64,000 nucleotides of DNA from positions 1-64,000 of the IMG/VR virus record IMGVR_UViG_3300043414_000372. One strand, given 5' to 3'. The notes under the pieces are model-generated. The model searched no databases, was not told where the DNA came from, and saw nothing but the letters and a program-made list of their open reading frames with translations. Positions 3-17,435 of the stretch are shown in pieces (position 1 is the stretch's first letter; every line of letters begins with the position of its first letter). A program made the position numbers and the translations under genes. The stretch comes from a virus (taxonomy: Duplodnaviria; Caudoviricetes).

Positions 3-557
3 TTTCCTAATGGTTGGCAAACAACTGTTCGTTGGCATGATGCCGGTGACTTTTTTAGTCCAGAATACTTAGACATGGCATTGAAGATGGCTGCTAAACA
101 TCCTGATGTTAGATTCTATGCTTACACTAAGATGGCTGGTGCAGCGTTAGCTAAGAAGCCAGATAACTTCATTATCAACTGGAGTGAAGGCGCTAACACT
201 GCACAAGAAAAACAAATCAAAGCACAAGACCCTAACTTAGACAAAACTAAGAATAGTCGCATCGTTCCAGAGAAACTATTCTATGACTTGTTAGCTAAGG
301 ATGAGAAGGGTAACTTGAAAAAGACGGATGACGGTGCATGGCAACCTGCTGATGAAGCGGCACTCAAAGAAATGAAACAACGTATTGCCACAGAATATGG
401 AATTAGTGCTTCGAGTATTTTAAGTTATACTGAATACATGGCTAAACGAAATTCAATTCCAGCTGGAATGAAGTACAATGTTATTGTTGCCCCGGGTGAA
501 GGTGATGTTAGTGCTAACGACCCTGGTGTACTAAGTACACTATTGTTAAGACACTAA
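3..557 (+). CDS. GP88-like protein, 5'-truncated by the window edge
   Basis: Frame is open upstream of the track ATG (75): FPNGWQTTVRWHDAGDFFSPEY followed by FYAYTK, the RWHxxGDF...YxYTK signature of phage Gp88-like proteins. Confidence 0.7.
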   Translation, partial: FPNGWQTTVRWHDAGDFFSPEYLDMALKMAAKHPDVRFYAYTKMAGAALAKKPDNFIINWSEGANTAQEKQIKAQDPNLDKTKNSRIVPEKLFYDLLAKDEKGNLKKTDDGAWQPADEAALKEMKQRIATEYGISASSILSYTEYMAKRNSIPAGMKYNVIVAPGEGDVSANDPGVLSTLLLRH

Positions 558-1384
558 ACTTTAAGTAGTTCTTCCAAAGTGTACAACTCTTTCATATAGG
601 GTGACACATTATCTAATACAGATACTGCTAAGTCACCCTTTCTTCTTGGACCTATTTTTGTAAGCAAATTAATATTAGGTATATTATTTACCTCTCTGAA
701 CATATTAATCATTTCAGCAACAGTATACCCTATACCGTGTCCCAAGCATTCTATCTGATTGCTTGGCTTCTCAATAGCACTACGTAATGCATCACAGATT
801 TCATTCACATGAACGTAATCACGTACACAAGTTCCATCTCGTGTACCATAATCATTACCAAAGATGGTAAACTCACCTGTCTCTTTTGCTTTCAATAGAT
901 TATACATTAGTCCATCGGGGTTAGTTGGCTCAAACCCATCACTACCAATTACATTGTAGAATCTAAAGATAGTATAAGGTGTGGGTTTGTGTTGAGTATA
1001 GTATTCACGCACAACATCTTCCGCAGCACGTTTACTAATTCCATATGCACTTTCACAATCTTGTGCTGCGCCTGTACTAGCAAAGATAAAGTTCTTTGTC
1101 TTTATTTTATTAATAACATTCATTGTACCATTCAAGTTAGTGATGTAATATTGAATGGGCATTCTTTCACTTTCACTAACATTAACTAATGCTGCTAAAT
1201 GAATTACTGCATCAAATTCCATATCAATATTAAACAACTTATTGATATTAAGTTGATAATGATCGGTTACGGGAAATTGTGATGGATTAATATCCAATCC
1301 ATATATTTCATAATCTGTGCGTAGCATCTTACTAAGATGACTACCAATGTAACCACTGTTACCTGTTATTAATACTTTTTTCAT
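554..1384 (-). CDS. galE: NAD-dependent epimerase/dehydratase (UDP-glucose 4-epimerase-like)
   Basis: TGNSGYIG Rossmann motif, HLAA, YGISK (YxxxK), FRFYNV, RDYVHV. Confidence 0.85.
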   Translation of the reverse strand: MKKVLITGNSGYIGSHLSKMLRTDYEIYGLDINPSQFPVTDHYQLNINKLFNIDMEFDAVIHLAALVNVSESERMPIQYYITNLNGTMNVINKIKTKNFIFASTGAAQDCESAYGISKRAAEDVVREYYTQHKPTPYTIFRFYNVIGSDGFEPTNPDGLMYNLLKAKETGEFTIFGNDYGTRDGTCVRDYVHVNEICDALRSAIEKPSNQIECLGHGIGYTVAEMINMFREVNNIPNINLLTKIGPRRKGDLAVSVLDNVSPYMKELYTLEELLKV

Positions 1385-2724
1385 TCAAAACTAAAAAGGC
1401 TTTCACCTTCTTCCTCTGGTTCAAACACTGGATCTTTGGTAAGATACGTATCATGGTCTGTATATATTATACGAAACTTGTGTTTATTTGTCAACACTGA
1501 TTTGATATCATCAATGCATAACAATCTACGTTCTAACTGGATATTAAAACTACTCAATTTAATTGTAGTTTCTTCGCATATCTTTGCAGTATTACTATTA
1601 GATTTCTTACCGTCAAACTCATTGAAACAACTATTCCATTTGTGAAATACATCAGCTTCTGTTTGTTGCGTGTGTGTCAACGCACCCTTATCATAGTATA
1701 ATTTAGCTATGCTATATTGTTCATATAGTGCTGTAACCAACGCAGCTATATTCTTCTTGTCAGTTCTATAGAAATAATCACTACTAAAGTTTTTAGTCCA
1801 GCGCATATCATCTAAACATACTGTGGGCATCTGTGTCATTTGCTCATAAAAAGCCATACCATAACTCTCAACCGTGCTAGGATTGAATGCAACTCTGCAA
1901 CTAGTAATGAAGTCTACCTTTTCTTGTCCAATGATACTGACTCCAATCTTGTAATCAGTTATTCCCATTTTCTTAAAACGATCCTCAAACTTTTTTGCAC
2001 CGTTTGCATTAGTCATAACTCGTGCGGGTAGTTTAGTTTGTTCAATCAAGTCTAGGTAAAGTTCTGGATTCTTACCTTCTTCCCATCTACCGATAAACAA
2101 TACACCTTCACGTGGTTTATGATGTTCTTTTAATAACTCTTGTTCTGTGATTGGAATAGGCAAGTGATATGCATTAGTAAATTGTAACTGATTAAACTTA
2201 CTCTGTGTGCCAATAGTAATGCCGTACAATTCCAATTGCTTACGCATCATATCATTAGTATTGTGTAAGAATGGATTCTTTGTGTCTTTAAAAATTTGAC
2301 TTTCTAAATGAGTATATGCAATTATTTGTATAACATCTTCAAGACCCATTGTACTAGCAACCTGAACAGTTTCGTATGTATTGCATATCAATGCATCATA
2401 TATATTATTTTCAAGTGCTTCTATGATACTGTTACGGAAGTTGGCCATACGTTCATAACAGAATGTATCACCGTACATAAATATACCGCTATGGTCCGTG
2501 TACTTTAATGATTCAAGTGGAGATATAACATTAGCTTTCAATGATTTAACAAAATCAGTATCTTGTGGTTCTTTATCAGTTATGATATCAACTTTGATGT
2601 TGTGACTATCCATTAACTCACAAAAACTTTTTGCAAATTGACCTATACCACCATGTGGTACTAATGTCTGATAGCTTACTAAGAAGCCTATTCTTTTGTT
2701 ATAGGTCCGCATTCCATACCTCAT
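1381..2724 (-). CDS. GT-B glycosyltransferase (GT4-like)
   Basis: PHGGIG N-terminal motif, FIGRWEEGKNP, and ESYGMAFYE (E-x7-E). Confidence 0.8.
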   Translation of the reverse strand: MRYGMRTYNKRIGFLVSYQTLVPHGGIGQFAKSFCELMDSHNIKVDIITDKEPQDTDFVKSLKANVISPLESLKYTDHSGIFMYGDTFCYERMANFRNSIIEALENNIYDALICNTYETVQVASTMGLEDVIQIIAYTHLESQIFKDTKNPFLHNTNDMMRKQLELYGITIGTQSKFNQLQFTNAYHLPIPITEQELLKEHHKPREGVLFIGRWEEGKNPELYLDLIEQTKLPARVMTNANGAKKFEDRFKKMGITDYKIGVSIIGQEKVDFITSCRVAFNPSTVESYGMAFYEQMTQMPTVCLDDMRWTKNFSSDYFYRTDKKNIAALVTALYEQYSIAKLYYDKGALTHTQQTEADVFHKWNSCFNEFDGKKSNSNTAKICEETTIKLSSFNIQLERRLLCIDDIKSVLTNKHKFRIIYTDHDTYLTKDPVFEPEEEGESLFSFE

Positions 2725-2893
2725 CTACTTTAGGAACAGTAATCCATTCTGTAAATCCTGCTCTTTTAAGAAATCCACCTGTTCTAGGATTCTGTGAAGC
2801 ATAGTCTGTTATTTCTGTTTCATACCGATATTGTAGTAATGTTTCAGGGCCATCTATTCCTGCTGTAGTAAGCCAACGCATTTCAAATCTCAT
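2699..2893 (-). CDS. Hypothetical protein (64 aa)
   Basis: ORF tiled in the operon with overlapping ends; no recognisable motif. Confidence 0.55.
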   Translation of the reverse strand: MRFEMRWLTTAGIDGPETLLQYRYETEITDYASQNPRTGGFLKRAGFTEWITVPKVDEVWNADL

Positions 2894-3135
2894 ATTAAAT
2901 CCTTTAATCTTGCTATTAAATATTCATCTTTATCATACCAACGATGTTCGTACAACCAATCTGCAAACCCTGATTGATATCCTGCGGTAATGCAATATAC
3001 ATTCTCTAACCACATTATACGCTTTGATATATAGCATCGTCTAGGCAATAGGGTAAACTTTAATTTTCTACCCATAACACATCGTTTAAAATGATAATCA
3101 CCGGCTGATTGCGTAGTCCAATCACTTGAGGGCAT
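2890..3135 (-). CDS. Hypothetical protein (81 aa)
   Basis: ORF tiled in the operon, overlapping its neighbours. Confidence 0.6.
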   Translation of the reverse strand: MPSSDWTTQSAGDYHFKRCVMGRKLKFTLLPRRCYISKRIMWLENVYCITAGYQSGFADWLYEHRWYDKDEYLIARLKDLI

Positions 3136-3230
3136 TATTCTCTATCCACTCTAGCATCTTCATTTGACCTATAGCACATGTATAGTACACCTACTATATA
3201 CCCAAGTAAGAATCCCCAAACTAAATTCAT
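3135..3230 (-). CDS. 31-aa single-pass membrane microprotein (not in ORF track)
   Basis: Hand translation MNLVWGFLLGYIVGVLYMCYRSNEDARVDRE*; TGATG overlap with queE stop and TAATG overlap with the next start, exactly filling the gap. Confidence 0.7.
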   Translation of the reverse strand: MNLVWGFLLGYIVGVLYMCYRSNEDARVDRE

Positions 3231-4078
3231 CAGGTACCCCACTCGTTTTTGAACAACGGCACTTGTAATCTATCACTATAGCGCCAGCCTAAACGCATTG
3301 CTTCATTAGCAACATTTCTAGCATTCATATTATACAAACTTTCAACACCGCCGCAAGGCATCAAATATACATGTCCTCTAAAGCCACGCTTACTGTATTC
3401 ATTAACTGCTTCTTGTGCTTCTTCTACGTCTTGTTTGTTTGCTACAACAAATTTAAGATATACATGACCCACTTGAGTATATTCATATACAACTTCAGGT
3501 CTTATTGCTTCTTCCCACTTTTCTCCGCTGATACTTAGTTTAGGACTGACGCTAAATGTTATTGCACCCATGCTACGACTGATACACCATTTATGTAAGT
3601 AGATTTTCAAATCTTGATGTAATTCTTGTGTACCGTTAGTTTCAAAAGTTAACTCTTGCAAACCACGCATGTTTTCATGTGAAAGCAAATCTACATAACT
3701 ACGTTGCCAACCCAGCAATGGTTCGCCGCCTGTGATAACAAGATGCTCACTCAACCAACGATTGTGTGGTAGCATTTCCATAATGCTATCAACGATACTA
3801 TCAGTTTCAAGTACAGGACTTAAATCTTTGAATCTTGGATCCCAACTTGCATAACTATCACAACCTGTGCTAACTAATGGTAGTTGTTTATAATCAGTAT
3901 AGTAATGAACACGGGCAGCTATATCTTCTACTTCACGACTTAGTTCACCCTTAGGCATACCAAAGCCTGCGCATTTGAAGTTACATCCGAATGTACGTAG
4001 AAAGACTGAGGGGACACCCATGTATCTACCCTCACCCTGAATGCTATAGAATAGTTCTGCGATTTTTAATTTTGCCAT
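3230..4078 (-). CDS. queE: 7-carboxy-7-deazaguanine synthase (radical SAM)
   Basis: IAELFYSIQGEG, RTFGCNFKC...C cluster motif, VITGGEP, ETNGT, VSPKL; start re-set to MAKLKI (4078). Confidence 0.92.
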   Translation of the reverse strand: MAKLKIAELFYSIQGEGRYMGVPSVFLRTFGCNFKCAGFGMPKGELSREVEDIAARVHYYTDYKQLPLVSTGCDSYASWDPRFKDLSPVLETDSIVDSIMEMLPHNRWLSEHLVITGGEPLLGWQRSYVDLLSHENMRGLQELTFETNGTQELHQDLKIYLHKWCISRSMGAITFSVSPKLSISGEKWEEAIRPEVVYEYTQVGHVYLKFVVANKQDVEEAQEAVNEYSKRGFRGHVYLMPCGGVESLYNMNARNVANEAMRLGWRYSDRLQVPLFKNEWGT

Positions 4079-4079
4079 G

Positions 4080-4559
4080 TTAATCCTGAAATTCGTTATC
4101 TTCCCTGTGCCCAACACGCATTGCCATGTTAGCATCAGTTTCTCTTACTTCTACTTTACTACACCAAACACGTTCTGCTTCACTAGCACCAAAGCTAGGC
4201 AATAGAATAGTGTTAATGTATTCGTATAAGAAATCACTAATACCCTCACAGCCAGTCTTTTCAACTTCTGTAATCTTTGCTAGCTTAAGTCTACCCAACT
4301 CAAGTAAATGTTCACGCATTGGGTCATCTTGTGCGACTAGTAATGTATGATCAAACCAATCTTCTAATACAGATTTTAGAGGCTTTAGTCCCCCAAAGTC
4401 TGTTACCCAATTACGGGCATCTAATGTATCAGCTTCAAATTCAAAATGAAATGAAAGTGCGTAGCCATGTATTAGATTGCAATGACTATCGGCACGCCAT
4501 TGACGATAAGCTACTGGACCTATTTGTTTGTAAGTCTTTGTTGAAATATATTTTGCCAT
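4080..4559 (-). CDS. queD: 6-carboxy-5,6,7,8-tetrahydropterin synthase
   Basis: CNLIHGY (CxxxHG), DFGGLK, FDHTLL, VRET; adjacent to queE. Confidence 0.9.
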   Translation of the reverse strand: MAKYISTKTYKQIGPVAYRQWRADSHCNLIHGYALSFHFEFEADTLDARNWVTDFGGLKPLKSVLEDWFDHTLLVAQDDPMREHLLELGRLKLAKITEVEKTGCEGISDFLYEYINTILLPSFGASEAERVWCSKVEVRETDANMAMRVGHREDNEFQD

Positions 4560-4565
4560 GATGTT

Positions 4566-4630
4566 CTCCTATGTTATTATAGCATAGGACGCAGAATTTA
4601 TCAACCGGGATGATGTCCTGTAGACCGGCT
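4566..4630 (-). promoter_or_regulatory. Candidate structured leader (hairpin + pseudoknot vs SD-sequestering stem) of queD
   Basis: AGCCGG/CCGGUU stem with 16-nt loop; loop AGGAC is complementary to downstream GUCCU, which alternatively forms UCCUAUG/CAUAGGA over the SD. Confidence 0.45.
4576..4604 (-). promoter_or_regulatory. Sigma70-type promoter of queD
   Basis: Minus strand TTGATA-N17-TATAAT with extended -10 TG; AGGAG SD follows. Confidence 0.7.
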
Positions 4631-4639
4631 CTGGGTAAA

Positions 4640-5194
4640 TTAAAGATAATTGTACCCAGGTAAATTTTTCTTTATACGACTTCGTAAAGTATCATTTGTT
4701 ATTTTTAGTGCTATGGCTGCATCCTTAACACAATCAAAAGTTCCAATAGGTGTTGATACTGATTTAGCCCTAGGATTTAATCCACCGTGCAACTGTGGTC
4801 TATTTTTGAACAGCAGTATATTTTCGGGCGTGTGCTTTTTACCATAAAATGAATTCAATGTTCCTTTTTTGCCAAACTGAGGATTTTTTTCTCCCTTCAT
4901 ACCAGGACTACCTACTGGCTTTCCGTCTCTTCCATTCTCGGGCCTTAGATTTGCCCACTCTTTAGATTCTACAATGTTGTTCTTCTCAGAGAATTTCAAA
5001 GCAAAATGTTCACATTCATCTTGATCTTCAAACTCCCAAACCTCTAATGTAATTATGTCTTTCCCGTGCATTTTCAAATGTCGGCGCCAATGTGTCCCTG
5101 AACCAATATAAACATTTGGATTTTTTTTGATAGTCATTCCAAAATATTTCAAGCCAGTTATTCTGTGTTGTTTTACATATAAATAAATTTTCAT
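4640..5194 (-). mobile_element. Free-standing GIY-YIG homing endonuclease with NUMOD3-like DNA-binding repeats
   Basis: IYLY...GLKYFG catalytic motif; GEKNPQFGKK and NSFYGKKHT NUMOD3-like motifs; inserted between intact genes. Confidence 0.85.
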
Positions 5195-5218
5195 AGATTA
5201 CCTCTATGATTATTTATC
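5191..5218 (-). promoter_or_regulatory. Late promoter plus translational-repression hairpin of the endonuclease gene
   Basis: GATAAATA (5211-5218) followed by UCAUAGA-ggtaa-UCUAUGA stem covering the GAGG SD and AUG. Confidence 0.65.
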
Positions 5219-5224
5219 CCTAAT

Positions 5225-5252
5225 TAGCGGGGTTGATGCCAAAAGACCGCTA
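5225..5252 (-). repeat. Second copy of the queD-leader hairpin
   Basis: UAGCGG/CCGCUA 6-bp stem, 16-nt loop UCUUUUGGCAUCAACC resembling UCUACAGGACAUCAUC at 4609-4624. Confidence 0.55.
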
Positions 5253-5255
5253 TAT

Positions 5256-6113
5256 CTATTTACCTAAATTCATTTCTTTTCGGATATTTGTGGCACTAAT
5301 TTGGGTGATATTTTCATCAAATGTTTCCTCACCTGATGTATATCCCACTCCGCGTCCCCAACCAATATGAACAATATTGGGTACAACTTGTATCTCATAT
5401 TGTCCTTGAAAGATTGGATCTAAATCACGTTTGATAAACCCTTTAACTTGGTCAATAGCGAAAGGATTACTTCCTTGCCATCCTTGTACATCACGTACTT
5501 GAATAACAACTTGCCCAGTTTTTGCTATCAATCGTTCAAACAATGCACGATGTCCAGCATGCCATGGTTGCCAACGACCCAGCATTTGTACTGTTTCTTT
5601 CTTCCAATCAAATACTGGTCTACGGCGATTGTCTAGTATATGTTGCCCAATAAACTCTGCCCACTTGTCAGCGTTTTGTTCTGTTATACGGAAATCATAT
5701 ACTTCTGGTGGAATAAATGCTTTGTTAGTATCATCAAACCGACCTTGGTCAATAGTATCAACCCAGATAGTCCAATCAGCTTTGAAGTTATTACGCATCT
5801 CAACTAATGGTGCAACAAAGTCGCATATAACATAATCACTAGTACAATTTAATGCAAACTCAGCCATACGCAATGATTGACGAATACGACCTTCACGGCT
5901 GAAGTCCCAATCATTATATTTTTTACGAATCTCATCAGCATTAAACCAATCTACACTACACTTGTATGTAGTTGGCATATGTTCCATGTTAATAGCACGA
6001 TCCATTGGAAAGTTTTTAATATTTGAATTTTCTTCAATATACTTTTTCAATGCTGTGGCTAAAAATGTTTTGCCTGCTCCCGGCAAACCCATAATAAGTA
6101 TTTTCTTTGTCAT
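5256..6113 (-). CDS. Adenylylsulfate-kinase-like P-loop kinase fused to HxGH nucleotidyltransferase domain
   Basis: GLPGAGKT, NADEIR, DFVAP in the N-terminal half; GRWQPWHAGH and ISATNIR in the C-terminal half. Confidence 0.75.
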   Translation of the reverse strand: MTKKILIMGLPGAGKTFLATALKKYIEENSNIKNFPMDRAINMEHMPTTYKCSVDWFNADEIRKKYNDWDFSREGRIRQSLRMAEFALNCTSDYVICDFVAPLVEMRNNFKADWTIWVDTIDQGRFDDTNKAFIPPEVYDFRITEQNADKWAEFIGQHILDNRRRPVFDWKKETVQMLGRWQPWHAGHRALFERLIAKTGQVVIQVRDVQGWQGSNPFAIDQVKGFIKRDLDPIFQGQYEIQVVPNIVHIGWGRGVGYTSGEETFDENITQISATNIRKEMNLGK

Positions 6114-6577
6114 TGTTTCACCTTATTTTGTTCTGCTTCTGATACACGTTTACGTAAACTGCTGCTACTGAAACTGTGGTCACGACTATTGAATACTAAT
6201 TCTATCTTACGCTTCTCACAAATTGCTCGTCCAGTAAAGTCTTTCTCCATGTACTCAACCCCTAGTATACGTACATCTACTGGCAATGTCAACAGTATGT
6301 CTTCCAAATCTTTTTCAGTATTATAAACAACGATTTCATCTACAAAACGTACAGCACTTAAACTGATTTGTCGTTCTACAATACTTTGAATGGGTGCATT
6401 CTTATCTGGTCTATCCCATTGTGCATTGTTTTGTAATCCGGCAATAAGGTAATCGCAATGATTCTTAGCTTCACTAAGCATTGCGATATGTCCAGCGTGT
6501 AATATATCAAATTGCGAGAATACAATACCTATCTTAAGGCCTTGTAGTTTTAGTTCTTTAATTCTATTGAATATCAT
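6110..6577 (-). CDS. Cytidylyltransferase (TagD/RfaE-C-like)
   Basis: FDILHAGH, ERQ..L.AVRFVDEIV, SSSSLRKR. Confidence 0.85.
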   Translation of the reverse strand: MIFNRIKELKLQGLKIGIVFSQFDILHAGHIAMLSEAKNHCDYLIAGLQNNAQWDRPDKNAPIQSIVERQISLSAVRFVDEIVVYNTEKDLEDILLTLPVDVRILGVEYMEKDFTGRAICEKRKIELVFNSRDHSFSSSSLRKRVSEAEQNKVKQ

Positions 6578-7251
6578 TTATTGCCCCGAGCCAATTGATA
6601 AAATTCTGCTCTTGCTGCTGGATCACTTTTGAATCCTCCACCTAGCTTACTTGTAACAGTACTAGAGCCAGTATCTTCTACGCCGCGACTTTTTACACAA
6701 TAGTGTTGTGCATCAATCATAACCGCAACATCTTCTGTTTCCAGAATATATTGTAATGCGTGAAAGATTTGTTCAGTCAATCGTTCTTGGATTTGTGGAC
6801 GCTTGCTAAAGTATTCTACAATACGATTGATTTTACTCAATCCGAGCACCTTTTGATTGGGAACATATGCGACAGTAGCAAGACCGTCAATGACTACAAA
6901 GTGATGTTCACAATTGCTTTGTACATTGATATTGCGTTCACATACCATTTCGTTGTACTTCATTTTGTTATCAACTGCGGTACATTTAGGGAATGCTTCA
7001 TAATCTAGTCCCCAAAAGATTTCGTTGACATACATCTTTGCCACACGCTTTGGTGTATCCATAAGACTATCATCACTTAGGTCAAGCCCCATTGTTTCCA
7101 TGATAGATTTGAAATGACCTTCAATGATGTGAATTTTGTCTGTACGAATTAGTTTATTTGGAATAGTAGGAGTTTCAACTCCCATCTTAACCAAATGTTC
7201 GTGTACTTGTTGACCCAACTCTGGATCTGTTTTTGTTTTATTGTAACTCAT
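6574..7251 (-). CDS. folE: GTP cyclohydrolase I
   Basis: TPKRVAKM, SNCEHH, GLSKINRIV, QIQERLT, HYCVKSRG; start re-set to MSYNK (7251) after GGAAGG SD. Confidence 0.95.
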   Translation of the reverse strand: MSYNKTKTDPELGQQVHEHLVKMGVETPTIPNKLIRTDKIHIIEGHFKSIMETMGLDLSDDSLMDTPKRVAKMYVNEIFWGLDYEAFPKCTAVDNKMKYNEMVCERNINVQSNCEHHFVVIDGLATVAYVPNQKVLGLSKINRIVEYFSKRPQIQERLTEQIFHALQYILETEDVAVMIDAQHYCVKSRGVEDTGSSTVTSKLGGGFKSDPAARAEFYQLARGNK

Positions 7252-7323
7252 AGATAACCTTCCTTTGTGATGGTTTGTGTTTTGAAATGTAAGCAACCGT
7301 TGTGCTGCTTACATATTTATTTA

Positions 7324-7530
7324 TCACTTTGATTTTGCTTTTGATTTTTTTGCTGGCTTAACGCTAGCAATTGCTTCATTAACTTCCCGCAATAGGGCTT
7401 CATCGTCCCAAACTAATTCAGTTTTACCATTCGGAAATGTTGTAACTGTTAAGTGATTACCTTTAACGATCTTTACTACATCTTGTCCTGTAGCATCGAT
7501 AGTTTCTGTTTTCTTTTTGCGGGTTGCCAT
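7324..7530 (-). CDS. Hypothetical protein, basic termini
   Basis: ORF track; tiled in the operon. Confidence 0.65.
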   Translation of the reverse strand: MATRKKKTETIDATGQDVVKIVKGNHLTVTTFPNGKTELVWDDEALLREVNEAIASVKPAKKSKAKSK

Positions 7531-7532
7531 GA

Positions 7533-7721
7533 TTAAGCCTTAGCTTCTTTACGTGCTGCTTTCTCAGCAGTAATTTCGTTACGGCGAGCCTTAACTGCTT
7601 TAGCTAGTTCACCCAATGCTTTACGGGCACGAGTTCCTGCTGCTGCATTACCTTTTTCAAACTTTTCATGTTCGGCTTCGTATGCTGCCAATTGTGTTTT
7701 AATATCATTATGTGCGTTCAT
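7533..7721 (-). CDS. Histone H1-like (Hc1-type) small basic protein
   Basis: EKFEKGNAAAGTRARKALGELAKAVKARR resembles the Hc1-like family motif. Confidence 0.65.
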   Translation of the reverse strand: MNAHNDIKTQLAAYEAEHEKFEKGNAAAGTRARKALGELAKAVKARRNEITAEKAARKEAKA

Positions 7722-7745
7722 TTTATTTTCCTTTTAAAAATTTAT

Positions 7746-8162
7746 TTAGCTGGGGTCGCCTTGACCCACAATATTATCATCTTCATCTAACAACTCTAGA
7801 GGACCTTCAAGTATGTAATCAGTGTCATCACAACTCCAACCCAATTCTTCTAGCCCTTCATAGAATTCTTCATCCCATGCTTCTGTTATTTTCTCTTGTT
7901 CTTCTTCACTCATATCATCAGGGAATTCCCAATCAGCATAACAACCATCATCTAGATGTTCAAGTTCCCATTCATAATCATCGCTACCAATCTGATAACC
8001 ATCCTCATTGACTAAATCAATTTCAGGTTGTGTATCACTTTCGCAATAGAATATCCCCCAACGATAGCCCTCAGTACGGATAATTTCTTTACCGTCTTTG
8101 TACCAATGTTGTTTTTCAATTGCACTCTTTTTATGTTGAGTTTTTAATGTCCATGTTGTCAT
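7746..8162 (-). CDS. Highly acidic hypothetical protein
   Basis: C-terminal two-thirds very D/E-rich with periodic W/Y. Confidence 0.7.
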   Translation of the reverse strand: MTTWTLKTQHKKSAIEKQHWYKDGKEIIRTEGYRWGIFYCESDTQPEIDLVNEDGYQIGSDDYEWELEHLDDGCYADWEFPDDMSEEEQEKITEAWDEEFYEGLEELGWSCDDTDYILEGPLELLDEDDNIVGQGDPS

Positions 8163-8163
8163 T

Positions 8164-8451
8164 TTATTCTTCCTCAGTTAATAAATCGTTGATGTTCTCG
8201 GCAATACTCAATGCCCACTCGTAGTTGTTATCCCATGCTTCATCATATTCAGGTGTATGATCATCGGCATCAATGAAGCCTTCAATCGCATAAGCAAAAC
8301 GTGTAGCAAAGTTTTCTTCATTAATATGAGTACTACCTTCATTCCACACATCTTCCATGGTCATGATTTCACGTATCATATCAACATCGCTGCTGCCATC
8401 AATGCATTCTTCAATTTCTTCATCTGTTAAGTCTGTTGGAATTCTTGACAT
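8164..8451 (-). CDS. Highly acidic hypothetical protein
   Basis: D/E-rich throughout, almost no basic residues. Confidence 0.65.
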   Translation of the reverse strand: MSRIPTDLTDEEIEECIDGSSDVDMIREIMTMEDVWNEGSTHINEENFATRFAYAIEGFIDADDHTPEYDEAWDNNYEWALSIAENINDLLTEEE

Positions 8452-8452
8452 A

Positions 8453-9628
8453 TCAGTATTTGCTTTCTCTAGTATATTTACGATAGTCTACACCCATTCG
8501 TAGCATAGACTCACCCTTGCCTTCAAGTATATCACAGATTCTATCTACTGTGCTATCGTTTCGGTCACTTATCTTTCCCATGTTCTTATGAGGCTCTTGT
8601 AATAGCCGACGCAACTTACCAATAGCATTATCAATAGACCAAGGAATATACAAACGGTCAGGATCGTTAGCGAAAGTTTCAGGGAAGCTGCGATAAGCAG
8701 GATAGAGAACATTACATCCGAGAGCATCAGCCTCACTGACGGTGTTTGATACCCAGTCCTGTAACGCACAGTTAAATACAACCCGACTATCATTAACAAT
8801 GTTGTAGTATTCATTCTTTTCTAGATCCTCATAGACTTTCAACAACCCGCGTGATTGCATGTCACGAGTGCGTTGCATATAGCTTTCGCTATTTGATTTA
8901 AGTTTACCACCACTACATACACAGAATTCAACATCGTTGTATGGTTTTTCTCTGTGCCATTGTTCAATGAGATCCATATAGAAATCAGGTTGTTTTTCCT
9001 GATCCCATCGTGCAGAAAATACTACACGCTTCTTGCGTTCATTAAATGGCTTGATACTTGCTACACGATTTTGTACTTCACTCTTACCAAATGCTAACCC
9101 ACTGATATTGTAAATTGGAGCCTTCCAACCTGCAATTTTCATATGCATTACCATTTCTTCATTAGTTGCGAGTACTCCATCCACAAATGAGTCAACCATC
9201 TTTTCATAGTGACCCATGAAATCCTGCATACCCCATACATGTACAAAATCATCAGGATCAATGGACTGAGCAAGACAGCGAACATAAATCTGAGGCCTGT
9301 GAACAGGATCAATTTGCTTAAGAATATACGGAAGACTTTCGATTCCGGGCTGAAACATGTCCTCAAAGTAGACAACATCTTCATTGTTTAATTCTCCTTG
9401 TTTCATCATACGAATTAAATTCATTAGCTGTGACATACCAAAGTATGTACGACCATGAGCATCTAATACTTGACCTGTTACAATTGCTTGGTCGTTACTT
9501 AGTGTTTCACCAGGCACAATAATATAGTTAATGCCGCGCCGATCAAACACAGTAGTATTCCAGTCTTGTAACTGTAGAGTATACCTTGCTTTGTAGGGTT
9601 CAAGACCCATGTAATAGAGTTTTCTCAT
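8453..9628 (-). CDS. GT-B fold glycosyltransferase
   Basis: VVFSARWDQEKQP, VFNCALQDWVSNTVSEADALGC, YPAYRSFPE C-terminal donor-binding pattern. Confidence 0.75.
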   Translation of the reverse strand: MRKLYYMGLEPYKARYTLQLQDWNTTVFDRRGINYIIVPGETLSNDQAIVTGQVLDAHGRTYFGMSQLMNLIRMMKQGELNNEDVVYFEDMFQPGIESLPYILKQIDPVHRPQIYVRCLAQSIDPDDFVHVWGMQDFMGHYEKMVDSFVDGVLATNEEMVMHMKIAGWKAPIYNISGLAFGKSEVQNRVASIKPFNERKKRVVFSARWDQEKQPDFYMDLIEQWHREKPYNDVEFCVCSGGKLKSNSESYMQRTRDMQSRGLLKVYEDLEKNEYYNIVNDSRVVFNCALQDWVSNTVSEADALGCNVLYPAYRSFPETFANDPDRLYIPWSIDNAIGKLRRLLQEPHKNMGKISDRNDSTVDRICDILEGKGESMLRMGVDYRKYTRESKY

Positions 9629-10209
9629 TTTATAAAATTATCTATAAAGTTGTTATGATTTTCATAATTCATTTTTGGATACAGATTGAAAGCCATTACT
9701 AATCTACGACCATTTACATCAGTCATTGGACTAACTTTGTGTCTTAATGTTCCGGGAAATATTATTAATTTACCAGTTTCAGGTGTTATCTTAGTTTGAC
9801 TAAACCAAATGTCTGAAGCACAAAATGTATCCATATAACATATTGCGCCAAAGCTAATTGGATTATGATCATGTTCCTTATGAAAACTTGTTATTTTGTA
9901 ATCAATTATCCAAGACTCTTTTATTTCTAAATTGACAGTTATCATCTTTGAGCCTGAATCTACTAGTTTAGTAGCCTTTTGCTCTATGTTTGATATTAAA
10001 TCATTAAAGTTATCGGTCCTATATTGTACTAGATAATCCGAATGCCACCAATTCCCGCCATTCCAAACCCCATCATTGTTATAATGATTTTTAGGATATT
10101 GTTCTTTATATTCATTGATATAATTAACTAATGTAGGGAAATTAAATTCTGACAGTAAGTTATATTCATAAACTGCCAAATCAGAATTATTGATGGTATG
10201 CTTAATCAT
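9625..10209 (-). CDS. Putative 2OG-Fe(II) oxygenase
   Basis: HKEHDH, LIIFPGTLRHKV, distal R and MAFNL; ATGA overlap with the GT start. Confidence 0.7.
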   Translation of the reverse strand: MIKHTINNSDLAVYEYNLLSEFNFPTLVNYINEYKEQYPKNHYNNDGVWNGGNWWHSDYLVQYRTDNFNDLISNIEQKATKLVDSGSKMITVNLEIKESWIIDYKITSFHKEHDHNPISFGAICYMDTFCASDIWFSQTKITPETGKLIIFPGTLRHKVSPMTDVNGRRLVMAFNLYPKMNYENHNNFIDNFIK

Positions 10210-10218
10210 AACACTTAA

Positions 10219-10425
10219 TTATGGACGAGCGTTTTCCTGCCATTGATCTTTAGCAAATTTGCCTGTAGCAAATTTAGTATACTGACGATATACATAACTC
10301 CGTTGATCGTAGAGTTCTGATTCATTGTACTTATAACCAAAATCCACACAGAATTCTAAGTATTTCTCTAGGTCCTCAAAGATTTGAGTAACACGTGGGT
10401 TTGATTGAAAAGTTTGTTTTGCCAT
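10219..10425 (-). CDS. Hypothetical protein (68 aa)
   Basis: ORF with AAGGA SD, tiled in the operon. Confidence 0.7.
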   Translation of the reverse strand: MAKQTFQSNPRVTQIFEDLEKYLEFCVDFGYKYNESELYDQRSYVYRQYTKFATGKFAKDQWQENARP

Positions 10426-10437
10426 TTTATATTTCCT

Positions 10438-10890
10438 TTAAATAGCGAGGTTACGATAAGGTTGAGTTCTATTATAAGAAATCGTAGCACCATTCTCATC
10501 ATCTTCAGAGACTTTGATTTTGATATTACGACTTGGATACCGAGTTGCGATAACCTCATAAAGGTCATCACTAATCATTTCACAACTTTTGTAATCCAAT
10601 GCAAGAATGCCTTGAGAATATTGATTCTCTAACCATCGTTTGAATTGAATAAACTCAATATCACGGTCGTTGTGAAATACTTCAATCGTCACTTCAAAAT
10701 GAAATATGTGACGATGTGGAGTTGCTAGAAAGCTAACATCATACTCATCACCTGTTGCCAAGTTAGGGTCTGTTGCTGCTGCGGGGTATTTATGAATACC
10801 TTCTTTTTGAAATCTTACAAAGATTGTACGAAATGCTTTATCTTTAATGCGCTGACGTTTTTCAATATCAGCTTGTTCTTTTTGGTTCAT
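10438..10890 (-). CDS. dpdL: QueD-paralogous T-fold protein, DpdL-like (predicted CDG decarboxylase)
   Basis: LATPHRHIF (LxxxHRHxF), DRDIEFIQFK, KSCEMI, VSEDDENG; sits two genes from the DpdA-like gene. Confidence 0.6.
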   Translation of the reverse strand: MNQKEQADIEKRQRIKDKAFRTIFVRFQKEGIHKYPAAATDPNLATGDEYDVSFLATPHRHIFHFEVTIEVFHNDRDIEFIQFKRWLENQYSQGILALDYKSCEMISDDLYEVIATRYPSRNIKIKVSEDDENGATISYNRTQPYRNLAI

Positions 10891-11099
10891 TATCTATCAT
10901 CCTCAAAATTAACACTTTCGTGGTCTTCATCCCATTGAAGTTTTGTATATCTTCTTATCTCAGAGTATACATCATTTCTATCTATCAGCATAGCTTTAAG
11001 GGCGTCTTTGTTAAAGTTACTGTCCTTTTCTACCTTCAAGATTTCCTTGTCAAGGTCTATGGCCCTTCGTTGTAATTTTGCAATTTGTTGTCTGTACAT
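10890..11099 (-). CDS. Hypothetical coiled-coil protein
   Basis: ORF track; start/stop overlap with the neighbour. Confidence 0.65.
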   Translation of the reverse strand: MYRQQIAKLQRRAIDLDKEILKVEKDSNFNKDALKAMLIDRNDVYSEIRRYTKLQWDEDHESVNFEDDR

Positions 11100-11103
11100 A
11101 TTA

Positions 11104-12645
11104 TTACTCCAAAACTAATGACATAGCTTCATCGCTATCTTCTATTTCTTCAATCGGTTCTTCTTCTACGGTAAACAATTCATCAAACATACTCATAGCA
11201 TTTTCAGTTTTCTTACCGCTAATACCTTGACTACCTGATTGAAATTGTTTCCAGTAACTACTATGATAATCAATCAAATCTAACGATTCTTGTTTTGTTT
11301 TCTTGCTAAAGATTTCATCAACAATGTTACCAAAGAAGTTATCACCTTCAAACTTATGTACCAACATCTTTGGAACTACACCTGTTTCATATTGACGATT
11401 AGCTTCTTGAACTGCATTCATATGCATCCATACATTATGACTTTGTAATAAGGTATAGCTTAGTGTATCCCAACTTGTTTTTGTTTCTTTACCATGCTGA
11501 CCCAAGAATCCTACACCACGATAACATAAGTCTTTCATAACTAATGCATCAGTTACTGGGCTATCAGTAAATGATTTATGTACACCATCAGCCAATACAG
11601 CATCACGGTATTTGCGATTGTCATTAGCATAACTTTTCTTTTCAGCAGTCTTTTCCATTTGATAAGACCATTTCTTGTTATGCTCAATAGTTGTATTGAA
11701 ATAAGCAAGACCCTTAGCAGCACTAAAGAATGGGCTAGCACAGTCAAATGTAATCTGAAGGCTTGGGTTATGATACTTACGTACCGCTTTCTGTATGTCT
11801 GTAAACAACACAGCATACTCTAAAATACTTGTACCCAAGCAATGAATCAAATCATGTTTGCCCTCACGTAGTAATCCATCATGGATGATACCAACCAATC
11901 TACGCAATGTCAAATGAATGTCAATCTTGTTTTGTCCACCGAATGCCCAACCATTAAAATGATTGTCTGGATAGATGTTTGGATCACAATACTTTTTCAT
12001 TTCTTCATACCAATCATCTGATTGAGTATGATTGCGACCCTGCAACACATTTAAGAACTTACATTTCCCTGAGCGATTATTTATAAAGTATTCGTTATTA
12101 ATATGTGTGGCAGATATTGCTTCTTCAATTGTACTGATACCATGCAAACTATTACCATTCTTATCTTTCATACCAAACGTAGTTAATGATTGACTTGGGA
12201 TATCTAAACACATACCATAATCCATGTATGTGTCCATCCACTTCAATACTGCTTTACGTTTAATCATAGCACGAGGACAGTTGGGATCCTTCCAATCAGC
12301 TGGCCATTGACCTTTTAGAATCTGAAAACCACCACTATCACCCAACATGAATGTACCTTCTTCACGTTCACGTATGATAGATTCACTTGGATCATCAACC
12401 GTTGTATCTAAGTTAGCGTGACCAGCAGAGTACAATCCCCACTTGTAATAGTAAAGACCTTCTTTGCTATTAAGAAAGTTTAGTTTCTCCACATCACCAT
12501 TAAAACTAGCAGGGATACGTGCAGCATCAAAGTATTGTTCACCTTTGCGTTGCTTACCCAAGCCAGCAATATAAAAACTACTGACTGCGGGTAAAAACAA
12601 TGCCCACTCTGGCTTATGCTTTTGTGATAGATTATCTTGTTTCAA
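11104..12645 (-). CDS. dpdA: DNA 7-deazaguanine transglycosylase (TGT fold, DpdA family)
   Basis: GDSGGFQ, LDIP, VLQG, AFGG, HCLG, TFDCASP line up with TGT catalytic/substrate motifs; clustered with folE/queD/queE. Confidence 0.8.
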   Translation of the reverse strand: MKQDNLSQKHKPEWALFLPAVSSFYIAGLGKQRKGEQYFDAARIPASFNGDVEKLNFLNSKEGLYYYKWGLYSAGHANLDTTVDDPSESIIREREEGTFMLGDSGGFQILKGQWPADWKDPNCPRAMIKRKAVLKWMDTYMDYGMCLDIPSQSLTTFGMKDKNGNSLHGISTIEEAISATHINNEYFINNRSGKCKFLNVLQGRNHTQSDDWYEEMKKYCDPNIYPDNHFNGWAFGGQNKIDIHLTLRRLVGIIHDGLLREGKHDLIHCLGTSILEYAVLFTDIQKAVRKYHNPSLQITFDCASPFFSAAKGLAYFNTTIEHNKKWSYQMEKTAEKKSYANDNRKYRDAVLADGVHKSFTDSPVTDALVMKDLCYRGVGFLGQHGKETKTSWDTLSYTLLQSHNVWMHMNAVQEANRQYETGVVPKMLVHKFEGDNFFGNIVDEIFSKKTKQESLDLIDYHSSYWKQFQSGSQGISGKKTENAMSMFDELFTVEEEPIEEIEDSDEAMSLVLE

Positions 12646-13009
12646 CTGATTCTTCTTTCTTAATCAAGGTCCTGACAATACTTATTTGTTCTTGCTTTTG
12701 CTTGATGGTGTTCAATAAATCTCTGACAGTGGGATTAGTTGATGCTAGTACTTCCAAATCAAGTTCTTCTTGACGCTTTTGTTTAGCCCAATCAAGCAAT
12801 GATTCTGCTTCAGCATTTAGACCTACATTAACGTGTCCCATCTGTAATGTCATCCAAGATGAACCATCATATACTTCTATACCCTGATTAACTGTGTTGA
12901 ATCTCATATTACCAAGGCCCTGTGCTCCAGTATAGTTATTAACGTAATTGGTAGCAGGACCACCACTTACATTTATGTACTTACCGGAACTAGCAATGTA
13001 CTTGATCAT
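12632..13009 (-). CDS. Hypothetical protein
   Basis: ORF overlapping both neighbours. Confidence 0.7.
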   Translation of the reverse strand: MIKYIASSGKYINVSGGPATNYVNNYTGAQGLGNMRFNTVNQGIEVYDGSSWMTLQMGHVNVGLNAEAESLLDWAKQKRQEELDLEVLASTNPTVRDLLNTIKQKQEQISIVRTLIKKEESVETR

Positions 13010-13737
13010 TTCTTGTTCGCTGGCAATAAGTAAACATATGTTGCGATACCACTATTAACTGTGATTTCAGTCGCACCCTGTTCACTAATCTTAACTGTCT
13101 TGTCACCAACTAGATCCATGATAGATAAGAATTCTTTAACGGGCCACTTATGTGTACCAGCTAGTGTGCCAGTAACTGGAGTGTTGAATACAAAGTTACC
13201 ACTGTGTGTTGAAGCATCACCAAAGAATACTTTCAAATCACTACCATCAGTTTTGAACACGAAATGTTCTTCTTCGCTATTTGCTTGTGCTTGCTTCTTA
13301 AGACGTTGAATACCAGCAATTGTTGGCTCAAATTCAACATTCCACTTAGCACCCTTAAATGATACACTCTTAACCTTTTCATCAACTACGCTTTTAAGCA
13401 TAAGACGATAATCGTTAATGAAGTCACCAGTCTTTGTTTCAAAGTGAATAGTAGATGGAACATCTACACCATCACGTTGAGTACGAACAACATTGATTTT
13501 AGATGTGTCATCATACTCATCAAACCCAATAATTGTTTTGAGTTTGTTTAAGTTAGGCATACCGAATACACCGATGAAGTCGGCGATTGGGTCTTTGAAT
13601 GTACCACTGATGATAACACTTTTGTTTTCTGCTACTGCATTGATTGCCGTTACAGTATCTGTACCAGTGACCTTAATAAGTTCAATAGTGCCAAGACCAA
13701 GAGTATGGTCAATTAAGTCTTTTAAATAATCTTTCAT
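13006..13737 (-). CDS. DNA polymerase sliding clamp (gp45-like)
   Basis: 243 aa, two-domain beta-rich pattern ending YVYLLPA; immediately downstream of the polymerase. Confidence 0.65.
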   Translation of the reverse strand: MKDYLKDLIDHTLGLGTIELIKVTGTDTVTAINAVAENKSVIISGTFKDPIADFIGVFGMPNLNKLKTIIGFDEYDDTSKINVVRTQRDGVDVPSTIHFETKTGDFINDYRLMLKSVVDEKVKSVSFKGAKWNVEFEPTIAGIQRLKKQAQANSEEEHFVFKTDGSDLKVFFGDASTHSGNFVFNTPVTGTLAGTHKWPVKEFLSIMDLVGDKTVKISEQGATEITVNSGIATYVYLLPANKK

Positions 13738-13779
13738 TTTGTTTCCTTTGTTTAAAATATTTAGGAGTTCCTATCACGT

Positions 13780-13808
13780 ATTATAGTGGAATATATTGCG
13801 ATAGTCAA
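13780..13808 (-). promoter_or_regulatory. Sigma70-type promoter of the clamp gene; late TAAATA also at 13758-13763
   Basis: TTGACT-N17-TATAAT. Confidence 0.8.
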
Positions 13809-13815
13809 CACCAGT

Positions 13816-16835: not shown

Positions 16836-17435
16836 TTACTGCTTTTCTACAATCTTTTTAACCACAGTGTGCAGTCCTGGGTTAATATGTAATGCGTGTG
16901 GCATCAAATGTGTTCTTACATAGTTACGCATATATTTTGTGTCATCGTTACTATTGTCGTGACACCAATCAATAGATTTACGTTCGCACCAGCTTTTGAA
17001 TTCACTTTTGTTTGTTGTTAGAAACGGACGTACAACATTGTTTCTTTTTGATGGGATAACTTTTGGTTGTCCGTGAAGTGATGACCAAACATATGTTTCC
17101 ACACAGTCATCTAAATGATGACCGGTGACAATTAGTCCTAGTGTGTCACCAATACTATCTAAGAATTCATAGCGTTCATTACGCCAATGTTCTTCTGTGC
17201 TGAGTTCTTTGGGTTTAATATTCTTAATCATTCCAATCATAAGTGGAAGATTGCGTTCAGTGCAGAAGTGTGCAACAAATTCTAATGCACGTTCGCTATT
17301 CTCTGTTCCGTGATGAAAGAAAGCACAAGTTACATTGTGTTTTTGAGAAAGGAAGTCTGTGATAGCAACAGAGTCAACGCCGCCACTAAGTGCGACAACA
17401 ATATCTTTTGGCAATGGAAAGAGTAGTTTAAGCAT
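16836..17435 (-). CDS. tilS: tRNA(Ile)-lysidine synthase, catalytic domain only
   Basis: SGGVDS PP-loop, RNERY, GHHLDDCVET, VRPFL, DNSN...RNYVR; lacks the C-terminal domains. Confidence 0.88.
   Translation of the reverse strand: MLKLLFPLPKDIVVALSGGVDSVAITDFLSQKHNVTCAFFHHGTENSERALEFVAHFCTERNLPLMIGMIKNIKPKELSTEEHWRNERYEFLDSIGDTLGLIVTGHHLDDCVETYVWSSLHGQPKVIPSKRNNVVRPFLTTNKSEFKSWCERKSIDWCHDNSNDDTKYMRNYVRTHLMPHALHINPGLHTVVKKIVEKQ

Follow-up and report, generated by a model that had tools for sequence, protein, structure and literature searches.

To our knowledge, the natural 7-deazaguanines described in DNA carry a small side chain or none at all, and the sugars described in DNA all sit on pyrimidines. 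The current study concerns a gene cluster in which these two kinds of modification may meet. The cluster occupies positions 554-12645 of a 64,000-nucleotide stretch of an uncultured giant tailed phage (Caudoviricetes; IMG/VR record IMGVR_UViG_3300043414_000372), hereafter the window, which covers the opening 64 kb of a viral record of 229,851 bp with an estimated completeness of ~61% and has a G+C content of ~36%. It combines genes for the synthesis of 7-deazaguanine and its insertion into DNA with sugar-related genes, among them one for a GT-B-fold glycosyltransferase (GT) at 8453-9628. We term this enzyme GT-B2, and it is associated with DpdL, the proposed decarboxylase of 7-carboxy-7-deazaguanine (CDG).

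Among the described systems, the one of Cellulophaga phage phiST resembles the window in encoding FolE, QueD, QueE, a DpdL with the signature LxxxHRHxF and an enzyme of the tRNA-guanine transglycosylase (TGT) fold, in that no QueC or QueF was found (for the window, in a record ~61% complete), and in adjoining replication genes. The LxxxHRHxF signature, found in place of the CxxxHGH of QueD, is what defines DpdL (PMC10516641; Cui, Hutinet et al., NAR 2023), and the deoxynucleoside of 7-deazaguanine (dDG) has been shown only in phages of the phiST type, which lack the GT (PMC10516641). In phiST the GT-B2 family is absent genome-wide, DpdA is of the short DpdA3 type and the DNA contains plain dDG at full replacement (PMC10516641), whereas the window encodes a 513-aa DpdA of another subfamily together with GT-B2, a GalE-like epimerase and variable sugar genes. 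Acidovorax phage ACP17 has the arrangement QueD-FolE-DpdA-GT-DpdL-QueE, in which the GT (ASD50404) is a member of the GT-B2 family (23% identity). Unlike the window, ACP17 has no GalE, GT4 or cytidylyltransferase gene nearby, and its 424-aa DpdA, which bears the motif DSGGLQ, is of the BUDD/BUCT-ZZ01 subfamily and unalignable with the DpdA of the window. The Pseudomonas jumbo phage PA5oct (Wroclawvirus) shares with the window the order family B DNA polymerase (PolB), 243-aa protein, DpdA, GT, DpdL and, further on, QueE, but no homologues of GalE, GT4 or the cytidylyltransferase were seen in its locus. PA5oct DNA is a target of END nucleases, which are defence enzymes that recognize modified DNA (PMC12191111). 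No report of the chemical identity of its modified G was encountered in the literature searched.

Sugars attached to a 7-deazaguanine derivative are familiar from animal tRNA, in which galactosyl- and mannosyl-queuosine occur, the mannosyltransferase being of the GT4 type. Glycosylated queuosine is unlike the present case in that it is found in RNA and carries its sugar on the cyclopentenediol hydroxyl, a group that dDG and its CDG counterpart (dCDG) both lack. On the side of DNA, the phage clusters that glycosylate 5-hydroxymethylcytosine (5hmC), including those with the T4 alpha- and beta-GT, parallel the window in their GT-B enzymes, epimerase and GT pairs, sets of kinase, cytidylyltransferase and GT, successive GTs and proximity to replication genes. 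They differ in their acceptor, a hydroxymethyl pyrimidine that arises either through the combination of a methyltransferase with a TET enzyme or through a ThyA-like hydroxymethylase, whereas the window phage encodes a canonical thymidylate synthase and the conserved partner of its GT is a purine-replacement pathway. Phage 5hmC GTs have been validated, those of the GT-B type with BshA and MshA as top matches in the Protein Data Bank (PDB); many of the validated enzymes depend upon a paired epimerase, one set of a kinase-like protein, a cytidylyltransferase and a GT-B enzyme adds heptose, and purines and deazapurines are not mentioned (bioRxiv 10.1101/2023.12.21.572611).

Results

GT-B2 accompanies DpdL

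The GT-B2 family was seen only beside DpdL, in every readable context. In the window, the gene of the 391-aa GT-B2 (8453-9628, minus strand) belongs to the same tightly tiled cluster as that of DpdL (10438-10890, minus strand), a 150-aa T-fold paralogue of QueD. When GT-B2 was compared by tblastn with 50,697 phage records, only five records, representing four phages (BUCT-ZZ01, ACP17, BUDD and X1), contained a homologue, in each case with DpdL at a distance of 2 kb or less; the closest cultured homologue, with 64% identity, is that of Synechococcus phage BUCT-ZZ01. Profile iteration added EST35_0317 of PA5oct, which sits between DpdA and DpdL, the GT of Phosso, whose start overlaps the DpdL stop, and the GT of BCSR5, all of which are located within dpd clusters. 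The cultured GT-DpdL lineages outside the group of the window phage thus number six (BUCT-ZZ01, ACP17, BUDD/X1, PA5oct, Phosso and BCSR5). A further sample of ten distant members, at 29-40% identity, included eight with readable DNA flanks, and all eight have an LxxxHRHxF DpdL within ~1.5 kb, usually together with QueD, QueE and FolE; one of these eight belongs to a small phage with PolA in which FolE2 takes the place of FolE. The phage backbones concerned are unrelated and comprise a T4-like cyanophage, Busanvirus, Xanthomonas, Burkholderia, Sinorhizobium and Pseudomonas jumbo phages and the small PolA phage. They differ in gene order and in the type of DpdA, and translational coupling between dpdL and the GT gene is frequent. 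The preliminary description of the window, which was made from the sequence alone, had proposed to look for co-occurrence of the 8453-9628 GT with dpd genes across phages, and this association is now borne out, as the family adjoins DpdL in all contexts that could be read. Strong gene linkage therefore supports the view that this GT is dedicated to the deazaguanine pathway.

The family is large, with 799 clusters at 50% identity (E<=1e-3). At least 599 IMG/VR stretches match GT-B2 peptide patterns, which places the relatives of the window locus in the hundreds. No cultured phage matched the region by megablast.

The GT-B2 family is absent genome-wide from five phages that encode DpdL (phiST, D479, Ahp1, RHph_I1_18 and Bakedbeans), and all five carry DpdA3. 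GT carriers have instead a long DpdA with the motif DSGG[FL]Q, which falls into two mutually unalignable subfamilies, in addition to BCSR5; a third, DSGA-type group of DpdA among the GT carriers is tentative. GT-B2 thus appears to accompany the long DpdA types and to be missing where DpdA3 is encoded, a clean pattern in a small sample. The DpdL of RHph_I1_18 (62%), which has no GT, and that of Phosso, which has one, are both more than 60% identical to the DpdL of the window. Since DpdL sequences are not split according to the presence of the GT, GT-B2 looks like an add-on that acts after DpdL. A variant DpdL architecture was also encountered in Vibrio phage Bakedbeans, in which gp176 (L089:6215-7366) is a 383-aa protein with DpdL as its C-terminal third and an N-terminal part of ~260 aa without a Pfam match.

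Fold and conserved residues of GT-B2

The preliminary description had labelled the 8453-9628 product a second GT-B enzyme, and structure prediction confidently places it among GT4-like GT-B proteins. Its AlphaFold2 model, computed from an alignment of 62 diverse homologues, has a pLDDT of 95.5 and a pTM of 0.92. Foldseek matches in the PDB are glycogen synthase, BshA, MshA, PimA, LmbT and SenB (E ~1e-12), with TM-scores of 0.6-0.67 for the first four, and the fold neighbours in Swiss-Prot are likewise retaining enzymes of the GT4 type. Among viral models in BFVD, the two nearest stand out with E values of 1e-23 and 1e-18, as compared to 1e-11 for other phage GTs; one of the two is the GT of the ACP17 cluster, and their TM-scores are 0.75-0.85. 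At the sequence level the Pfam signal is weak, GT-B2 itself scoring 18.8 bits against Glycos_transf_1 (cut-off 26.4). The same profile matches 47/62 family members at E<=0.1, and the BUDD member scores 45.7 bits.

Across the 62 homologues, R207, K212, P214 and S294 never vary, and E211 and E299 are almost invariant. By comparison with GT4 enzymes, R207, K212, E211 and E299 probably form the nucleotide-sugar donor site, and the enzyme looks active. The invariant residues of the acceptor domain are mainly acidic or polar (E10, R15, Y16, D90, D127 and E142). A predicted complex of GT-B2 with DpdL scored 0.00, a value that carries no weight for or against binding. We also considered kinship with the queuosine mannosyltransferase-like proteins QTMAN/GTDC1. 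Such proteins did not figure in the 30 best fold matches from Swiss-Prot. Pfam (E<=0.1) found a DUF3524-type N-terminal domain in none of the 62 members, and a QTMAN-like identity was rejected on the latter basis. One member departs from the usual length: P0157 (L102:1888-3855) has 655 aa, with a C-terminal extension of ~290 aa that has no Pfam match, and its gene lies less than 1 kb from DpdL.

The deazaguanine core

The names given in the preliminary description to the deazaguanine genes all stand. FolE, or GTP cyclohydrolase I (6574-7296; PF01227, 1e-62; phrog_2197, 5e-76), QueD, or 6-carboxy-tetrahydropterin synthase (4080-4559; PF01242, the PTPS family, 1e-14; phrog_2389, 4e-43), and QueE, the radical-SAM CDG synthase (3230-4135; phrog_2076, 2e-53; TIGR03365, 6e-15), all on the minus strand, have clear matches in Pfam, PHROG or NCBIfam. 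What had been described as a dpdL-like open reading frame (ORF) is a DpdL by homology to the proteins of ACP17 (55% identity), phiST (35%) and PA5oct (57%) and by the sequence LATPHRHIF at residues 55-63, which fits the LxxxHRHxF signature; H33, H59, R60, H61, E79 and C103 are invariant in 29 homologues.

The DpdA gene (11104-12645, minus strand, TTG start) encodes a PA5oct-type DNA guanine transglycosylase that no sequence search recognized. There was no match for the protein in Pfam, PHROG or NCBIfam, none for PF01702 over the whole genome record, and none among PDB sequences by phmmer or profile search; as all of these searches came back empty, its identity came solely from the predicted fold. 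The AlphaFold2 model has a pLDDT of 83, and the top 50 Foldseek matches in the PDB are all tRNA-guanine transglycosylases. D103, within LGDSGGFQ, and D301, within FDC, are invariant in 30 homologues, and we take them to be the catalytic pair by analogy with D102 and D280 of the Zymomonas TGT. Fold matches to TGTs only, together with the DSGGFQ and FDC motifs, identify the protein as DpdA. It is 33% identical to EST35_0316 of PA5oct and belongs to the subfamily common to PA5oct and Phosso. A DpdA3 profile built from the phiST, D479, Ahp1 and RHph_I1_18 proteins matched none of the window ORFs, and the window DpdA has no sequence match to DpdA of the BUDD/ACP17 type. Among relatives of the window locus, DpdA identity to the window protein ranges from 35 to 97%, as against 77-96% for GT-B2 and 63-98% for DpdL, which suggests that DpdA may have been replaced, or may evolve rapidly, beside a conserved DpdL-GT-B2 pair.

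No QueC or QueF was found in the record, which is ~61% complete. The only candidates are otherwise accounted for: the match to PF14489 (QueF) falls inside FolE, and the match to PF06508 (QueC) is sub-threshold and lies on a 199-aa PP-loop protein encoded just upstream of the polymerase (16836-17435, minus strand). The latter belongs to PF01171 (ATP_bind_3, 4e-35), has the motifs SGGVDS and GHHLDD, and is TilS-like rather than a QueC.

A fixed core and a changeable periphery

The preliminary description had regarded the sugar genes as one integrated kit. A census of relatives speaks against such a unit. Out of 80 related IMG/VR loci, 34 are complete, with enough flanking sequence on both sides, and all of these contain GT-B2 by construction. 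DpdA and DpdL are also present in 34/34, GalE in 33/34, a 68-aa ORF located between dpdL and the GT-B2 gene in 31/34, and FolE, QueD and QueE in 30/34 each. GT4 (23/34) and the cytidylyltransferase (22/34) occur in about two thirds of the loci, the kinase fusion in 10/34 and the 2-oxoglutarate (2OG) oxygenase in 1/34. It is evident that the cluster consists of a fixed core, formed by the Dpd genes, GT-B2 and GalE, and a changeable periphery, and some relatives have a minimal order of DpdA-DpdL-GT-GalE-QueE.

The core GalE-like protein (554-1384, minus strand, 276 aa) is an NAD-dependent sugar-nucleotide epimerase with GxxGxxG and YxxxK motifs (PF01370, 4e-30; TIGR01179, 5e-46, below the cut-off; phrog_540). 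In a second GT lineage (L100) a GalE-like gene, 34% identical, adjoins the GT. The 68-aa ORF (10219-10425, minus strand) has no family match.

Of the peripheral genes, the GT4-like glycosyltransferase (1381-2724, minus strand, 447 aa) is a variable member with a weak match to Glycos_transf_1 (1e-4). It joins the GT-B2 profile upon iteration and has a 38% identical homologue in the BUCT-ZZ01 deazaguanine cluster, and distant homologues occur in Erwinia jumbo phages, which gave no DpdL match. The cytidylyltransferase-like protein (6110-6577, minus strand) is of the TagD or RfaE domain II type (PF01467, 5e-10; TIGR02199, 3e-17; TIGR01518, 2e-13), and its TagD-like family is common in cyanophages and vibriophages. 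The third peripheral gene (5256-6113, minus strand) encodes a fusion of a P-loop kinase with an HxGH nucleotidyltransferase (phrog_10255, 3e-41; APS_kinase, 2e-6; NMNAT-like, 6e-5) that displays the motifs GLPGAGKT and WHAGH. All three families are widespread in phages without DpdL, and the kinase fusion and the cytidylyltransferase were rejected as dedicated parts of the pathway since their families are widespread without Dpd genes. Homologues of the fusion in Sanovirus phages lie beside NADAR, MazG and methyltransferase genes, with no Dpd genes. In Stenotrophomonas phage Bhz60 of this genus, for example, the fusion (L103:5565-6741) adjoins a NADAR protein, a MazG-like pyrophosphatase and a DNA methyltransferase, a context more in keeping with a nucleotide or NAD/ADP-ribose function than with the activation of a sugar. 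A role of the kinase fusion in the deazaguanine pathway is doubtful.

Two further genes are passengers. The accessory 2OG-Fe(II) oxygenase (9625-10209, minus strand; PF13759, 1e-7; phrog_81, 3e-19) was found in 1/80 of all related loci and was absent from all other GT-DpdL lineages examined; we had considered it as a general means of providing a hydroxyl for the GT, an idea that was discarded given its absence from 33/34 relatives. The homing endonuclease gene between queD and the kinase fusion (4640-5194, minus strand; phrog_314, 3e-9; NUMOD3) is present in only 2/80 related loci and is therefore a recent mobile insertion. The preliminary description had passed over this gene, as it had several small ORFs.

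Other GT-DpdL lineages have peripheries of their own. A weak GT2-type match (Glyco_tranf_2_3; L096:7147-8001) lies next to the family GT in one of them, and a Glycos_transf_2 gene and an InPase gene are found near the family GT in the context of P0234; given these extra GT2-type genes, multi-sugar decoration would not be peculiar to the window phage. The cluster of BUCT-ZZ01, which has GT4, DpdA, DpdL and GT-B2 genes, encodes a phosphoribosyltransferase-domain protein (L002:4093-4554; PF00156, 3e-13) between queE and queD that hints at a nucleotide-level branch for the deazapurine. The dpd cluster of Xanthomonas phage BUDD includes a 164-aa PP-loop protein of the PAPS-reductase type (L004:6380-6874), which may act on the CDG carboxylate.

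Neighbouring genes

The ORFs from 554 to 16521 all share the minus strand and overlap or directly adjoin one another, so the co-oriented and tiled arrangement reported for 554-12645 is confirmed together with the gene names, by family, motif or fold matches. The cluster had also been placed downstream of a clamp and a polymerase. The latter is indeed PolB (13816-16521, minus strand; PF00136, 7e-41; PF03104, 7e-24), but the supposed clamp, the conserved 243-aa protein encoded after the polymerase (13006-13737, minus strand), has no Pfam match and falls in phrog_12062, a family of unknown function; the clamp label is not confirmed, and the PA5oct homologue is annotated as a structural protein.

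The interval between folE and the GT-B2 gene encodes two short proteins of extreme acidity (7746-8162 and 8164-8451, minus strand), one of 138 aa with 42 D+E and the other of 95 aa with 29 D+E, both with an isoelectric point (pI) of ~4.05. They are present in 10/34 and 2/34 relatives, respectively, and have no family match; their composition is like that of DNA-mimic anti-restriction proteins.

Discussion

The features outlined above lead us to predict, at about an even chance, that the DpdL-type pathway for 7-deazaguanine in DNA has been extended by a dedicated GT and that the DNA of the window phage contains a glycosylated deazapurine. Such a pathway would proceed as follows. FolE, QueD and QueE would convert GTP to CDG, a chemistry that is established for these families, and DpdL would convert CDG to 7-deazaguanine, as proposed for phiST. 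The PA5oct-type DpdA would then exchange guanine in the phage DNA for the deazapurine, as its TGT fold and motifs suggest. As judged from gene linkage, GT-B2 might next transfer a hexose from a uridine diphosphate (UDP)-hexose to the deazaguanine, most likely once it is in DNA, and the GalE-like epimerase might supply or epimerize the UDP-hexose donor. More speculatively, GT4, the cytidylyltransferase and perhaps the kinase fusion could be swappable extras that lengthen the glycan or vary it between relatives.

Several observations favor a sugar on deazaguanine in DNA. Firstly, GalE is nearly constant among the complete loci, and a GalE-like gene also stands by the GT in the L100 lineage. Secondly, the GT-DpdL pair is found with at least two unalignable DpdA subfamilies. 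Thirdly, expression of the ACP17 DpdL and DpdA in E. coli, from which the GT was left out, yielded no dDG, and its authors suspected that an enzyme was missing (PMC10516641). Finally, PA5oct DNA resists cleavage at restriction sites that contain G (PMC12191111). The pyrimidine alternative received no comparable backing. ThyA, the sole homologue in the genome, passes the NCBIfam equivalog cut-offs for thymidylate synthase, and a search with PF12851 (TET) found nothing, though the positive control was likewise silent. Because ThyA is canonical, no hydroxymethyl-pyrimidine acceptor is apparent in the available 230 kb, and 5hmC or 5-hydroxymethyluracil (hmU) was dismissed as the sugar acceptor for lack of support.

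Other considerations weigh against a sugar on the DNA base, and the chief obstacle is one of chemistry. 7-Deazaguanine has no hydroxyl, such that a sugar would need to be attached at N2, O6, a ring carbon or, in the case of CDG, the carboxylate. We know of no GT4 enzyme that performs such a glycosylation on DNA. The GT-B2 family is acidic (median pI 5.8), in which it is unlike T4 beta-GT, and the solved GT4 structures closest to GT-B2 are of enzymes that use small molecules. No report of glycosylated deazaguanine in DNA was found in a literature search that was not exhaustive. Most of the co-occurrence counts within the phage group of the window are non-independent events. Furthermore, the DNA of phiST contains plain dDG (PMC10516641) in a phage that lacks GT-B2, so that deazaguanine DNA in itself can be made without this enzyme.

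The small-molecule character of the nearest solved structures (BshA, MshA, LmbT and SenB) bears directly upon a different location for the sugar. The GT could act within the pathway on the free base or an intermediate, yielding either a transient sugar, as a carrier or activating group required before DpdA accepts the base, or a soluble deazapurine glycoside, and in both cases the DNA would contain plain dDG or dCDG. There is precedent in actinomycetes, in which huimycin and dapiramicin bear N2-linked sugars on a free preQ0-type base, and the acidic and polar invariants of the acceptor domain would suit a base rather than a DNA backbone. The frequent translational coupling of dpdL and the GT gene also fits such a role, as does the failure of ACP17 DpdL and DpdA alone to give dDG (PMC10516641). 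The fold, however, is non-discriminating, as validated DNA-acting phage GT-B enzymes share the same BshA and MshA matches. A TGT-type pocket reads the N2/N1 face and would probably accommodate a pre-glycosylated base poorly, and the variable extra GTs and sugar-nucleotide genes better suit a displayed, diversifying glycan than a transient group. On balance, we consider action on the free base unlikely.

Less likely still, in our estimation, is that the DNA carries plain dDG and the GTs serve phage or host proteins, the cell envelope or another base, being located here merely by way of a shared early or DNA-metabolism transcription unit. Such a scenario would agree with the many phages that have members of the GT4, cytidylyltransferase or kinase-fusion families but no DpdL, and the canonical thymidylate synthase means that 5hmC or hmU is not indicated either. 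It is the behavior of GT-B2 itself that argues otherwise, since this enzyme was never found away from DpdL across unrelated backbones, gene orders and DpdA types. As for a pterin glycoside, which FolE, a PTPS-like T-fold protein and a GT4 enzyme could produce separately from the DNA modification, cyanobacteria do use a pteridine glycosyltransferase together with PTPS and GTP cyclohydrolase I, the window encodes these three classes of enzyme side by side, and the closest cultured GT-B2 relative is from a Synechococcus phage, but the idea is highly improbable given that DpdL has L at the position of the catalytic Cys in the QueD/PTPS motif, that QueE accompanies the GT-DpdL pair wherever the flank sufficed and a DpdA-type gene does so in most contexts, that no sepiapterin-reductase-like gene was noted, and that a close DpdL (RHph_I1_18, 62%) exists without any GT.

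Returning to a sugar on deazaguanine in DNA, this prediction can be widened from the window to the family. A widespread GT4-like phage family may glycosylate 7-deazaguanine or CDG in DNA, with the swappable extras and epimerase variants altering the glycan among close relatives in this abundant group of uncultured jumbo phages so as to create a DNA "serotype" under selection by modification-dependent nucleases; we rate this wider proposition at slightly below an even chance. The question is directly testable, as at least six cultured phages have the GT-DpdL pair, and the family is very abundant in environmental metagenomes. If true, the failed attempt to rebuild the ACP17 pathway from DpdL and DpdA alone would be explained, an identity would be suggested for the modified G of PA5oct-like therapeutic jumbo phages, and new enzymes for tagging purines in DNA would become available. 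The modification would give DNA its first sugar-bearing purine and would unite the two largest classes of hypermodification in phage DNA.

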